From NCBI GenBank assembly GCA_041687695.1, contig JAWLBL010000004.1, forward strand, positions 256,001-320,000: a stretch of 64,000 nt of DNA. The letters are read 5' to 3'. Shown in pieces: positions 57,569 to 62,733 of this stretch. The stretch's first letter is position 1, and every line of letters begins with the position of its first letter. The stretch comes from Myxococcota bacterium (GTDB lineage Bacteria; Myxococcota_A; UBA9042; PHBI01; JAWLBL01). The notes beneath the pieces are model-generated. The model made no database searches, was not told the DNA's origin, and was given only the letters and a program-made list of their open reading frames with translations. Position numbers and translations under genes: made by a program.

Positions 57569-59599
57569 TCAGGGGGCGATTCCCACCAGGTTGGCGCCGA
57601 TGCCGCCGACCTTGATGCCGATGGAGGCGGCGTCGGCCTCGCCGTCGCCGTCGGTGTCGATGTCGTTGACGACCAGGATGTCCAGCAGGCCCAGCACCGC
57701 GTCCTTGGAGATGGGCAGGGCGTCGTCGGGCAGCGCCTCGACGGCGGCGACCAGCTCGGTCTTGGGGACGGCGCCGCCGATGATGCCCGTGACGCCGGTG
57801 ATGAGCCCGTCGGTCAGGGTCACCTGGCCCTCGAACCGCACGTTGTACAGCGTGATCTCGAGGTTGCTGCCCTGGAAGGGCAGGCTGAAGGGGAACAGGG
57901 TGCCGGGGCCGCCGGCGGAGATCTGGTCGCCGGTGAGCGTCGCGGGCAGCTCGACCAGCGGCGCGCAGGTCACGTTGTCGACCATGCCCGCGTCGACCAG
58001 GTAGTCGCACGTGGTCGTCTGGAAGTCGCAGTCCGCGGACTCGGGCGCGAGGTCGGCCTGGTAGACCGCCATGGTGAAGGGGCCCTGCTGCAGATCCTTG
58101 GCCTCGATGACCAGCATGACGCTGCCCTCGGCCACCGCCTCGGCCAGCGGCTCGTTGGCCAGCGAGGCCAGCACGCCCAGGGCGTTGTGGACGCCGCCCG
58201 AGCACTGGTCCACGGGGGCGCAGGTCTCGGGGTCCTGGTCGAGGTCGAGCGCCTCGCCCGGCTGACCGGACTCGCCGAGCTGCACCTGGTTGAGCTTGGC
58301 GGCCGTCGGGGCGAAGTCCGGCTCGCAGACGCAGCCCGAGGTGTCGCCCAGGCACTGCCCGGCCACGCAGGTGTCGCCGGTCGTGCACTCGAAGCCGTCG
58401 TCGCAGGCCACCTCGCTGACCGGCTGGTGCTGGCAGCCCTGGACCGGGTGGCAGGAGTCGGCCGTGCACGGGTTGCCGTCGTCGCAGGACACGGGCGCGC
58501 CCTGGCAGGCGCCCTGGCCACACACGTCGTCCGAGGTGCAGGCGTCGCCGTCGTCGCAGGGGTCGGTGTTGTCGACGTAGTCGCAGTCGCCCGTCAGCGC
58601 GTCGCACAGGTCGGTCGTGCAGGGGTTGCCGTCCTCGCAAACCGAGGACAGGCCGATGCAGCACGGGTTCTGCGTCGGCAGGTGCACGCAGCCGACGTCG
58701 ACGTCGCACAGGTCGATGGAGCAGGCGTTGTCGTCGTCGCAGGGGTTGGGCGGCCCAGCCACGCAGGCCCCCTCGGCGCAGGTGTCGTCGACCGTGCAGG
58801 GGTCGCCGTCCTCGCAGGTGGCGCCGTCGTCGTCGGTGTGGACGCACCCGAGCGCCGGGTCGCAGGTGTCGGTCGTGCAGGGGTTGCCGTCGTCGCAGTC
58901 GGCGGCGGGCCCGGCGCAGACGCCCGCCAGGCAGGTGTCGCCGGTCGTGCAGACGTCGCCGTCGTCACAGGCGAGCTCGCCCTCGACCGGCGGGAAGACG
59001 CACCCGACGTCGGGGTGGCAGCTGTCCTGGGTGCAGACGTTGTCGTCCTGGCAGGTCACGGCCTCGCCGACGCAGGCGCCGGCGGTGCAGACGGTGGCCT
59101 CGGTGCAGGCGTCGCCGTCGTCGCAGGCCGCGCCCTCGGCCAGGGCGGTCCACGCGTAGGGGGCGGCGGCGGGGTCGCAGACCTCGCACGGGGCGCCCGG
59201 GCGGGTGGCGCCAGCGGGCCGGCACACGTGGTTGACGAGGCAGGTCTCGGGGGCCAGCGTCCAGACGCAGAAGCCGCCCTCGCCGCAGGTGTCGACGGTG
59301 CAGGCGAGGCCGTCGGCGCAGTCGTCGTCCGAGGCGCACGAGGTAGGCGGAGCGACGTCGGCCACGGCGTCGTCCTGGACGTCGGGGCCGGGGTCCGGCG
59401 CGTCGCCGTCGTCTACGTCTGGGCTGACGTCGACGTGGGTGTCTGCCTTGGCGTCGGGGGTCACGTCCGGCGTGGCGTCGGCCTGGGGATCGCCGGCGGG
59501 GTCGTCGCCGCAGCCGGCAGGCAAGAGGGCCCCAAGCCCCAGCAGGGCCGAGGCGGCGAGGCGCGACGCGAGGGCGGGTCGGAGCTGTTCGATGCGCAT
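57569..59599 (-). CDS. Cys-rich repeat surface lipoprotein with unassigned C-terminal domain
   Basis: Lipobox PAGC; Asp/Pro linker; about 11 CDDGxxCTxDxC repeats; about 240-aa C-terminal domain. Confidence 0.8.
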   Translation of the reverse strand: MRIEQLRPALASRLAASALLGLGALLPAGCGDDPAGDPQADATPDVTPDAKADTHVDVSPDVDDGDAPDPGPDVQDDAVADVAPPTSCASDDDCADGLACTVDTCGEGGFCVWTLAPETCLVNHVCRPAGATRPGAPCEVCDPAAAPYAWTALAEGAACDDGDACTEATVCTAGACVGEAVTCQDDNVCTQDSCHPDVGCVFPPVEGELACDDGDVCTTGDTCLAGVCAGPAADCDDGNPCTTDTCDPALGCVHTDDDGATCEDGDPCTVDDTCAEGACVAGPPNPCDDDNACSIDLCDVDVGCVHLPTQNPCCIGLSSVCEDGNPCTTDLCDALTGDCDYVDNTDPCDDGDACTSDDVCGQGACQGAPVSCDDGNPCTADSCHPVQGCQHQPVSEVACDDGFECTTGDTCVAGQCLGDTSGCVCEPDFAPTAAKLNQVQLGESGQPGEALDLDQDPETCAPVDQCSGGVHNALGVLASLANEPLAEAVAEGSVMLVIEAKDLQQGPFTMAVYQADLAPESADCDFQTTTCDYLVDAGMVDNVTCAPLVELPATLTGDQISAGGPGTLFPFSLPFQGSNLEITLYNVRFEGQVTLTDGLITGVTGIIGGAVPKTELVAAVEALPDDALPISKDAVLGLLDILVVNDIDTDGDGEADAASIGIKVGGIGANLVGIAP

Positions 59600-59607
59600 G
59601 GGAGACC

Positions 59608-62600
59608 CTACTTGAGGCTGCCGCTGACGATGGTGTTGCCGCCGTCGCGGGTGACCGACTGCGGGTTGATGGCGATGACGGTGCCGGGCGGGACGCCCTG
59701 GACCGAGCCGCTGAGGTCGATCTCGGGCAGCGGGATGCCGCCCAGGGTGTCGCCGCCCAGGGCGCCCAGCAGGCCAGGGACGAGGTACTCCTGGATGAGC
59801 CCGTCGAGCACGGCCTCGGAGCCGACCAGCTTGTCTTCCAGCACGTTCACCTCGGTCGCGAGCGACTGGATCTCGCTGATGCCGATGCCGAGCTGGTCGT
59901 CCGCCGCGGACAGCTCGAGCCCGGCGCGGAGCGACGCGTAGACGACCAGGGTCATCGGCGTCCCGAAGAGCTTCAGGGTCGCGTCGATGCGCAGATCGCC
60001 GATCTGCGCGATGAGGCTCTGGCCGTCGTAGCAGTCGCTGGCGGTCGGCTGGACCATGCCGCTGACGTGCATGACGAGGTCGGTCACGCCGAAGCCGGCG
60101 AGGTCGACGCTGCCGAGCATGCTGGCCGGCACGTCGAACTCGAGCAGACCGCCGAGCCAGGCCGCGTAGAGGATCTGATTGAGGAGGTCGTCCGAGACGC
60201 CGAGCTCGATGGGGCTGGCCTTGGGCAGGACCAGCTGCTGGCCGCCGCCGCCGCAGCCGTTGCGGCGGGCGCTGCCGAGGTTGTCATAGGGGACCGCCTT
60301 GGTCGCGTAGGCCCCGGCGCGTTGGATGAGCGACCCGCCGGCGGCCGTGAAGGGGACCGAGGCGAAGTCGGTGACGAGATCGATCGTCACCGAGCCCGTG
60401 CCGTCGAGGCGCGGGATGTCGAAGCTGGTGTTGAAGGCGAGGGCGCCGAGGGCGTCCTGGAGCATCGGGGCGAGGACGCCGGAGAGCTGGTCGTTCAGCG
60501 TGTCCTCGAGATCCGCGACGAGGGAGTCCTTGATGAAGGCCTCGACGATGGACAGCAGGAGGTTCGTCCAGCCGTTGTCCGCCCACACGTCGAGGCCGCT
60601 GATGGTCGAGGACTGGTTGGCGACGTTCACGACGAGGGCGCCGTCGGCGCCGACCGAGAGCTGCACGTCGGCGGTCACGGTGAGCGAGTCGATGGACAGG
60701 CCGCCGGTCGTGTCACCGCCGGCGAGCCAGCAACCCGTCCAGCCGCAGGAGATGCCGCTGCAGACGCAGTCGAGCCAGAGGTCGCCGGTGACGTCGTGGA
60801 TGACGGCCGTGACGCCGAAGCCGCCCGTCTTGGGGTTCAGCGTGACCGTCGTGGCGCCCTTGGCGAGGCTCTTGATGTAGATGTGGTAGCCGGCCTGGAC
60901 GGCGATCGCGGTGTTCGGGTCGATGAAGCTGTTGATGTCGAAGCTGCCCAGGACCAGCTCGAAGATGGTGGCGAAGTCGTTCGGCGGCAGGCTGTGGTCG
61001 CCGTCGTCGAGCACCTGCTTGGACAGCCAGATGCCCAGGCCGGGGTTGGCCATGCCGCTCTTGGGCGTCTCCTTGACGGGCTTGTCGTAGCCGGTCGCCC
61101 AGACGAAGGACTGGACGCGCTTGCGGAGCGTCCCGAAGCTGTCGCTGGCCTCGAACTCCAGGATGTTGCCGCCGACCGTCGGCACGACCTCGTGGCTGAA
61201 GCTGCCGTCCGAGGCGACGGTGACGGCCTCGCCGTTCAAGGTGAGCGCCTGGATGGGGCCGGCCCCGCTGGTGACGGTGCCCGTGACGGTCACCGTGGCG
61301 CCGCCCGCGCCCTGCAGGGTCGCGGCGCGGGGCGGGTGGGTCACGACGATGTCCGGGCGGCAGGCGTTCGAGACGACGAGCGTGTTCTTGCACCCGTCGA
61401 CCGGGTGGCAGCTGTCGGCCGTGCACGCGTTGCCGTCGTCGCAGGACACGGCCTGGCCCTTGCACTGACCGGCGTCGCAGGTGTCGCCGGTGGTGCAGAC
61501 CGTCCCGTCGTCGCAGGGGCCGGCGGCCGGCTCGTGCGTGCAGCCGTCGACCGGGTCGCAGCCGTCGGCCGTGCACGCGTTGCCGTCGTCGCAGGCGAGC
61601 GGGGTCGCGCCGGGCTGGCAGGCGCCGTCCTTGCAGACGTCGCCGATGGTGCAGACGCTGCCGTCGTCGCAGGCCAGCGTGTTCGGCGCGTGGAACGGCC
61701 CGATGGCCGGATCGCAGTAGTCGTCCGTGCAGGGGTTGCCGTCGTCGGGCGACACCGGCAGGCCGACGCAAGCGCCGCCCGTGCAGGTGTCCGTGTGCGT
61801 GCACAGGCTGCCGTCGTCGCACGGGTCGCTGTTGAACGGGTAGACGCAGCCGACCGCCGGGTCGCAGGCCTCGTCGGTGCAGGGGTTGTCGTCCGTGCAC
61901 AGGTCGTCGATGGGCTTGTGCACGCACCCGGTGGCGGGCTGGCAGGCGTCGATGGTGCAGAAGTTGTCGTCGTCGCAGTCGAGCGGGGCACCCCCGGCGC
62001 ACTGCCCGGCCGCGTCGCAGGCGTCGCCGGTGGTGCAGGCGTTGCCGTCGTCGCAGGTGGCGCCCGGCGTCGGGGTCGACACGCAGCCCTCGCCGGGGAC
62101 GCAGGTGTCGGTGGTGCAGGGGTTGCCGTCGTCGCAGTCCGGCGCGCCGCTGCCAGCGCCACACGCCCCGGCCGCGCACTGGTCGCCCACGGTGCAGGGG
62201 TCGCCGTCGTCGCAGGGGGCCCTGTTCGCGGTGAAGCTGCACTCGGCCGTCTCGGCGTCGCAGTGGTCGTCGGTGCAGGGGTCACCGTCGCTGCAGACCT
62301 TGGGGGCGCCGACGCAGAGGCCGTCGAGGCAGGCGTCGTCGGAGGTGCACGCGTCGCCGTCGTCGCAGGTGGCCGCGTCGTCGGGCGTCCAGGCGAAGCG
62401 GTCCACCAGGACCAAGCAGATCTCGCAGGGGTTGTCGGGGTTGCTCACCTCGTTGCCCCAGCAGACCCCGTCGAGGTCGCACTCGTCCTCGGCGCAGGGC
62501 AGGGCGGCGTCCTCGTCCTCCCAGGCGTCGTCCGCGTCGTCGGCGTCGTCTTCGGGGATCTTGGTGTCCTCGGAGGTGGACACCTCCGGCTGCGGGATCT

Positions 62601-62733
62601 CGAGCGTCGCGTCGGCCCCGACGGACGTGTCGATGGCCCCCGGCGTCCCCTCGTCGCCGCAGCCGGCGCCCACGAGCGCCAGCGCGAGGCCCAGTCGCGC
62701 TGCAACGCCAGCCAAAGTTGCCCTGGTCTTCAT
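59608..62733 (-). CDS. Cys-rich repeat surface lipoprotein with Ig-like domain and putative BPI/LBP-like C-terminal module
   Basis: Start MKTRATL, lipobox GAGC; about 13 CDDGxxCT repeats; Ig-like VTVTGTV..LNG..DGSF; about 480-aa C-terminal module starting NPGLGIWLSKQVLD. Confidence 0.78.
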   Translation of the reverse strand: MKTRATLAGVAARLGLALALVGAGCGDEGTPGAIDTSVGADATLEIPQPEVSTSEDTKIPEDDADDADDAWEDEDAALPCAEDECDLDGVCWGNEVSNPDNPCEICLVLVDRFAWTPDDAATCDDGDACTSDDACLDGLCVGAPKVCSDGDPCTDDHCDAETAECSFTANRAPCDDGDPCTVGDQCAAGACGAGSGAPDCDDGNPCTTDTCVPGEGCVSTPTPGATCDDGNACTTGDACDAAGQCAGGAPLDCDDDNFCTIDACQPATGCVHKPIDDLCTDDNPCTDEACDPAVGCVYPFNSDPCDDGSLCTHTDTCTGGACVGLPVSPDDGNPCTDDYCDPAIGPFHAPNTLACDDGSVCTIGDVCKDGACQPGATPLACDDGNACTADGCDPVDGCTHEPAAGPCDDGTVCTTGDTCDAGQCKGQAVSCDDGNACTADSCHPVDGCKNTLVVSNACRPDIVVTHPPRAATLQGAGGATVTVTGTVTSGAGPIQALTLNGEAVTVASDGSFSHEVVPTVGGNILEFEASDSFGTLRKRVQSFVWATGYDKPVKETPKSGMANPGLGIWLSKQVLDDGDHSLPPNDFATIFELVLGSFDINSFIDPNTAIAVQAGYHIYIKSLAKGATTVTLNPKTGGFGVTAVIHDVTGDLWLDCVCSGISCGWTGCWLAGGDTTGGLSIDSLTVTADVQLSVGADGALVVNVANQSSTISGLDVWADNGWTNLLLSIVEAFIKDSLVADLEDTLNDQLSGVLAPMLQDALGALAFNTSFDIPRLDGTGSVTIDLVTDFASVPFTAAGGSLIQRAGAYATKAVPYDNLGSARRNGCGGGGQQLVLPKASPIELGVSDDLLNQILYAAWLGGLLEFDVPASMLGSVDLAGFGVTDLVMHVSGMVQPTASDCYDGQSLIAQIGDLRIDATLKLFGTPMTLVVYASLRAGLELSAADDQLGIGISEIQSLATEVNVLEDKLVGSEAVLDGLIQEYLVPGLLGALGGDTLGGIPLPEIDLSGSVQGVPPGTVIAINPQSVTRDGGNTIVSGSLK

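Follow-up and report, generated by a model that had tools for sequence, protein, structure and literature searches.

Proteins of the BPI/LBP/CETP family (PF01273 and PF02886; PDB entries 1EWF, 1BP1, 4M4D and 2OBD) comprise two tandem TULIP barrels and a central sheet. Features described as conserved in BPI and LBP are a cationic N-terminal tip (residues 86–102) and the C135–C175 disulfide (PMC4620459); CETP is reported to enter HDL via Trp-bearing loops of its N-terminal barrel, by a mechanism which is still debated (PMC10027838, PMC5507252). Among bacteria, the TipA/TipB pair of Bdellovibrio (bd2538/bd2539) consists of a double-TULIP protein, for which a crystal structure and bound lipids are reported and which binds and destabilizes bilayers, and its operon partner (bioRxiv 10.1101/2025.09.09.675085). 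The legend to Fig. EV2 of the same preprint mentions double-TULIPs in AFDB50 that are fused to beta-rich and other domains; these may include members of the family described here. DUF4403, of about 460 aa, is a predicted full-length bacterial BPI homologue, whose link to BPI required HHsearch (63%) (PMC6791001). The uncharacterized bacterial protein A0A2D5ZNG0, like the module described below a bacterial structure resembling human BPI, belongs to the AlphaFold cluster of the latter with TM 0.81 (PMC10584675), and single TULIPs appear in another context in the Lipocone preprint. The first-pass annotation of the DNA analyzed here correctly held that distant bacterial TULIP homologues are known; given the structure, lipids and partner of TipA, they are better known than it stated, and a TULIP fold in bacteria is by itself no longer surprising. 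In the literature searched, which included few subscription papers, a stalked BPI-like lipoprotein family of Myxococcota, or a partner of the type encoded by gene B (see below), is not described, and both appear to be unstudied.

The window, i.e., the whole stretch of DNA that was analyzed (64,000 nucleotides from a contig of a Myxococcota bacterium), contains a minus-strand pair of genes, termed gene A and gene B, the latter starting 8 bases past the stop codon of the former (Table 1). Both the pair and TipA/TipB combine a bacterial BPI-like double-TULIP protein, a two-gene operon and a small beta-rich partner. TipA differs in being longer, secreted into prey, and dimeric via a hairpin that precedes helix B, and shows Z 16.5 to BPI (bioRxiv 10.1101/2025.09.09.675085); the gene A product is stalked, predicted to be lipid-anchored, and lacks the hairpin, since in the model strand 155–158 leads straight into helix 161–203. 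As to the partners, gene B codes for a predicted barrel on a stalk of its own, which would set it apart from TipB, a C2-like beta-sandwich according to the published description. A lipoprotein stalk tether and a partner gene also distinguish gene A from BPI, LBP and CETP.

Table 1. Features of the gene pair (positions in the window)
Feature	Position	Strand	Description or evidence
Gene A	59608..62733	-	Predicted lipoprotein of 1041 aa, comprising a signal peptide, an acidic linker, a stalk of Cys repeats, an Ig-like domain and the double-TULIP module
Signal peptide with lipobox-like Cys25 at its end	62659..62733	-	Sequence: Cys25 after hydrophobic stretch
Stalk formed by 13 Cys-rich repeats of the Dictyostelium type (residues 123 to about 459)	61357..62367	-	PF00526, E 1.7e-28
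Ig-like domain (Glucodextran_B)	61111..61356	-	PF09136, E 1.6e-9, above cut-off
BPI/LBP/CETP-like double-TULIP module, 481 aa (last 481 codons of gene A)	59611..61053	-	Model, Foldseek, VIA and profile matches
N-terminal TULIP barrel, module residues about 12–205	60439..61020	-	DSSP of the model; single-TULIP matches span 10–205
N-barrel tip loop	60703..60777	-	Four Cys and three Trp, neither Lys nor Arg; profile alignments place it on the BPI cationic tip
C-terminal TULIP barrel, module residues about 288–433	59755..60192	-	DSSP of the model; structural and profile alignment
Gene B	57569..59599	-	Predicted lipoprotein of 676 aa (Cys30) carrying 10 repeats of the Cys-rich type of gene A
Gene B head, 255 aa	57572..58336	-	Predicted small beta-barrel with helices, invariant Asp-x-Asp motifs

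Architecture and fold of the gene A protein

The open reading frame of gene A runs from an ATG at position 62733 to a TAG at 59608–59610. Its GC contents are 0.65, 0.52 and 0.98 at the first, second and third codon positions, respectively; the high value at the third as compared to the second position, together with a GGAGG motif upstream of the ATG, argues for a real gene with a correctly placed start. The architecture described by the first-pass annotation, namely about 13 Cys-rich repeats, an Ig-like domain and a module of about 480 aa, was confirmed, since all motifs it quoted occur in the translation and both Pfam domains match; a relaxed pattern yields 13 repeat units, a stricter one 11. 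The signal peptide and the lipobox Cys identify the product as a predicted bacterial lipoprotein, presumably lipidated, and a loose lipobox pattern, applied without a chance control, fits 94 of 120 homologues. Together with the source names of the homologues, of which those with names are annotated as “hypothetical protein” from metagenome-assembled genomes (MAGs) of Myxococcota, Myxococcales, Deltaproteobacteria or Nannocystaceae, the architecture supports the earlier description as a stalked lipoprotein of a probable myxobacterium; the protein is presumably exposed at the surface. Sequence inspection and a Pfam scan revealed neither a signaling domain nor a transmembrane segment in the gene A product. 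A YitT match (E 0.005) of one out of 32 family members was dismissed as due to chance.

The assignment of the module to a two-lobed BPI/LBP/CETP fold is borne out by several lines of evidence. An AlphaFold2 model, calculated from 119 of the 120 listed sequences (query included, one left out), reached a pLDDT of 91.9 and a pTM of 0.87 and shows two tandem barrels, in each of which a long sheet encloses a helix, linked by a central sheet, i.e., a predicted BPI-like double-TULIP that resembles the BPI/LBP/CETP proteins in length as well. In Foldseek, human BPI ranked first (E 8e-22, TM 0.58), followed by CETP and LBP. VIA-align superimposed 416 residues of model and BPI with Z 24.3 and an rmsd of 4.4; CETP scored Z 19.3, and the next structure only 11.1. 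Sequence profiles, which are independent of the structure model, picked out none but BPI and LBP from the 177,635 PDB sequences searched: a profile of 32 sequences (A4) gave three matches, two to BPI and one to LBP, with E-values of 2.6e-9 to 6.6e-9, and a wider profile of 45 sequences (A6) aligned with BPI residues 33–428 in one colinear stretch across both lobes (E 8.7e-13). In this respect the family differs from DUF4403, since its profile finds BPI by hmmsearch; DUF4403 itself was matched neither by the module (at E 1) nor by the 32 (A4) and 45 (A6) family members (at E 0.01).

By itself, the module sequence gives weaker matches. Identity of the module to BPI, LBP and CETP is 13–16%, and a phmmer search of the PDB with the single module sequence did not find BPI (best E 0.68). 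In the Pfam scan proposed with the first-pass annotation, the module scored 16.1 bits (E 0.0096) on PF01273, below the cut-off of 28.8, and did not match PF02886; within the family, 16 of 32 members matched PF01273 at E 0.01 (best E 7.7e-6), and one of 45 matched PF02886 (E 0.008). The module is a real BPI/LBP/CETP homologue, yet by the curated cut-off it is not a member of the Pfam LBP_BPI_CETP families. Taking model and profiles together, we regard its fold and homology as practically certain. Of the sequence landmarks from which the homology had originally been proposed, the inner ones of BPI align with the family profile (LGLSDYFFN with lglsdDllN, GFPLP with siplP), and the first N-terminal one lies outside the HMM-aligned stretch, but still within the structural alignment, which places model residues 3–481 onto BPI 2–454. 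Feature neighbors in the Atlas carry PF02886/PF01273; they include BPI-like clusters from protists, one cluster from Bdellovibrionota and one from Bacteroidota, in which 57% of the members have PF02886. As recognition fell under the mark of the tool, they serve as leads. The alternation of apolar and polar residues in the barrel strands is kept across the 119 sequences, as would be expected, if indirectly, of a sheet lining an apolar lumen.

In its chemistry, the module is unlike BPI. Where BPI has its cationic tip, the aligned loop is devoid of Lys and Arg, which weakens the proposal that the protein binds LPS in the manner of BPI and LBP; the fold and homology named in the first-pass annotation are upheld. 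The module contains 17 Lys+Arg versus 53 Asp+Glu residues; since 40% of the 372 lipobox-like ORFs of the genome are more acidic than the module, only the tip, and not the overall acidity, counts against LPS binding. Among 119 relatives, the tip window is devoid of Lys/Arg in 66 and contains three or more in five; at least two Cys are present in 90, and an aromatic residue in 115, a number inflated by flanking strand residues within the window. Within the module, the tip varies most; it is short or cationic in some members. A counterpart of the BPI C135–C175 disulfide is missing, as the module has no Cys in residues 120–205 and none of the 119 relatives has two Cys in alignment columns 135–205; instead, two other Cys are invariant in all 119 close relatives, though not in the wider alignment. 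By analogy, the Cys- and Trp-bearing loop may be used as proposed for the N-barrel loops of CETP.

Individual members deviate from this pattern. The protein encoded by L026:1501-2931 (G134), with a net charge of +22 and six Lys/Arg at the tip, is BPI-like in charge and, judged from its sequence, the best candidate for true LPS binding, and members from family f6 are near neutral; the few cationic members suggest that the family may cover several ligands. In the paralog L043:6152-9349 (-) (G000:C1), about 35 residues, apolar at their center, are inserted immediately ahead of helix B of the N-terminal barrel, the position of the dimerization hairpin in TipA, so that this protein may form a TipA-like dimer.

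Gene B and the distribution of the pair

The partner gene was not part of the first-pass annotation. The model of the gene B head has a pLDDT of 95.5 and resembles 8-stranded barrels only weakly, with no significant match (Z 6.9 or less); a C2 fold is not among the matches listed. The head is not assigned to any Pfam family, its comparison with PDB sequences yielded nothing below E 1.3, Foldseek returned no match at E 0.001, and its Atlas neighbors are unnamed. The invariant Asp-x-Asp motifs suggest that it may bind calcium.

Genes of the A and B types abut or overlap at several other loci. The head was matched in 60 of 61 genomes of the class. Within the 39 class genomes searched for both module and head, 33 have, among the best 150 matches of each search, a head within 5 kb downstream of the module on the same strand. 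In the other six, one pair is split by a contig end, with the head beginning downstream (L015), two are not adjacent, and three have no entry for one of the genes among the matches listed. Outside the class, 44 genomes were chosen by module score (16 with close, 18 with only distant and 10 without modules). Strong head matches (E below 1e-60) occurred in 11 of the 16 genomes with close modules, in ten of them adjacent to the module, and in none of the 18 and 10 others, where three and two weak matches, respectively, were found. Since strong heads in this sample thus occur only in genomes with close modules and a head match is absent from four of the 16 genomes, the pairing is specific but losable; three of these four genomes were placed in the quick tree, where they make up a single supported branch. 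Similarly, three paralogs of gene A on L041–L043 have no gene B head within 15–16 kb. Heads also occur away from pairs, with up to 16 matches per genome; one such copy on C13 of G000 has no TULIP neighbor among the matches listed. Genomes of family f8, including L059:4737-13957 (G064), show two tandem double-TULIP genes followed by one partner gene.

A third conserved operon gene was not found among 62 ORFs picked from the loci L041–L062. Genes for NuoB-like and HD proteins, DNA polymerase III delta' and glutamate synthase recur as neighbors, but this looks like local synteny. In the window, a stand-alone NuoB-like gene (PF01058; 56858–57484, minus strand) follows gene B, and NuoB-like and HD-domain genes flank the pair in genomes with the same gene order.

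The family profile matches 180 of 301 genomes of the phylum (the family was not found in the other 121), as compared to 124 for a search with the single protein. All 58 class genomes sampled (57 besides this one) contain one to six matches, including genomes of only 2.6–3.5 Mb. Counted irrespective of bacterial origin, 2,555 clusters at 50% identity match the profile at E up to 0.001, and 499 at E up to 1e-30. The ten homologues looked up all carry MAG labels, with no cultured carrier among them, and the plasmid collection gave no match. As in gene A, the module ends its ORF in all 26 distant members examined. At G181:C1:36154-37558 the module extends over two frames, indicating a frameshift or an assembly error, and P0063, P0334 and P0134 are each matched in two stretches, which may represent duplicated modules or duplicated heads of the partner.

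The genome analyzed here contains five diverged copies of the family; the four others are without Cys repeats, and the Ig-like domain recurs in three of them. In a tree of the bacterial family, which is a quick tree, the copy of the window falls, with SH-aLRT 100, among copies of genomes outside the class (families f23, f30, f38, f58 and f60) and away from most of the class; these families carry close copies patchily. Both the grouping and the patchy carriage suggest lateral transfer of the gene pair.

Possible function of the pair

Stalks of this type are widespread in the genome: 54 ORFs carry at least two Cys repeats, with up to 37 units. Among the 40 that were scanned, heads comprised two C-type lectin, one vWA, three MAM and two FGE-sulfatase-like domains; most had a head without a named Pfam family. 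C-type lectin, vWA and MAM heads are typical of exposed proteins, and since the same stalk bears them here, the gene A protein is probably displayed on the surface as well. It would be a tethered lipid carrier, a double tube held off the cell membrane by a disulfide-rich stalk, most likely at the outer surface. The Cys/aromatic tip of its N-terminal barrel would dip into whatever membrane or lipid particle it can reach, be it of prey, a neighbor, a vesicle or debris, and acyl chains would enter the barrels and then be handed on. The gene B product, presumably encoded on one transcript with gene A and borne by a stalk of like type, would act as a dedicated partner, as adapter, acceptor or Ca-dependent tether. 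This proposal is based on BPI, CETP and LBP being the best structural matches over both lobes, on profile homology to BPI and LBP only, on the conserved apolar strand faces, the aromatic tip and the pairing with gene B, and on the precedent of TipA. It is quite probable that the module binds lipids outside the cytoplasm; to surface lipid uptake or transfer in full, with gene B as helper, we assign a probability of about 0.5. Several observations count against parts of it. Some tips are short or cationic; gene B is dispensable, being without a match in four of 16 genomes with a close module and lacking near the paralogs on L041–L043. The 62 neighboring ORFs scanned include one TonB-dependent receptor, but neither outer-membrane channels nor lipid transporters recur in them, so that the proposal does not account for how lipids would enter the cell.

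The occurrence of the family in all class genomes sampled, the small ones included, would fit a housekeeping role in the envelope equally well. The stalk could then let a carrier anchored in the inner or outer membrane ferry lipids of the cell itself through the periplasm. One to six matches per genome throughout the class are in line with such a shuttle, YceB has been proposed to act in the periplasm (PMC5507252), and surface exposure is not readable from sequence. We nevertheless consider it unlikely, because the stalk type is shared with the lectin, vWA and MAM heads, no Mla/Lpt/AsmA-type gene recurs among the neighbors scanned, and the family was not found in 121 of the 301 phylum genomes. 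Sterols or hopanoids of the cell itself are an improbable cargo, as no squalene/oxidosqualene cyclase scored over the cut-off in this 99% complete genome.

The five diverged paralogs and the variable tip, cationic in a few members, could also mean that the proteins differ in specificity and grip lipid or LPS on foreign surfaces without transferring it, as sensors or adhesins in the recognition of prey or host; LBP-like proteins indeed bind LPS without killing (PMC4620459). Such a role is rather improbable in view of the missing signaling domain and transmembrane segment, the conservation of both barrels at full length, and the lack of basic residues in the tip of the window's copy. None of the 62 neighboring ORFs scanned hints at the functions suggested by the first-pass annotation, which were recognition of prey, extraction of lipids and their exchange between cells, and no finding links gene A to predation.

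Some proteins of the TULIP fold, such as Aha1 and OrfX/P47, bind proteins rather than lipids, and both are among the fold matches of the module model. A structural protein that retains the fold and binds no lipid might be part of a general coat or matrix, as the 54 repeat ORFs suggest, but the lipid-binding branch is by far the closest (Z 24.3 and 19.3 versus 11.1) and the apolar strand faces are conserved, which makes this very unlikely. Least probable of all is a BPI-like weapon that permeabilizes prey outer membranes on contact, for although BPI is the closest match in structure and sequence and TipA destabilizes bilayers (bioRxiv 10.1101/2025.09.09.675085), killing by BPI is tied to its cationic tip and a pI near 10 (PMC4620459), and the module is acidic, in itself weak evidence, with none of its Lys and Arg at the tip.

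For gene A, membrane insertion with lipid uptake or transfer thus seems more likely than LPS-driven killing. In its boldest form, which we hold to be speculative and doubtful, the proposal of surface lipid transfer would make A and B a stalk-mounted lipid-harvesting device of uncultured Myxococcota, in which a CETP-like tube with a disulfide-stapled apolar tip pierces foreign membranes and passes lipid to a new type of barrel at the same height, and would make the family the lineage nearest the root of eukaryotic BPI/LBP/CETP/PLTP proteins. It is an open problem how lipids of other cells are acquired by predatory and social bacteria, as stated for Bdellovibrio (bioRxiv 10.1101/2025.09.09.675085). 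With its conserved partner of unnamed fold, this large family of putative carriers, BPI-like and tethered, offers a concrete and purifiable candidate, and bacterial sequences close enough to BPI and LBP for placement in a tree bear on the origin of a protein family of innate immunity and lipoprotein metabolism.
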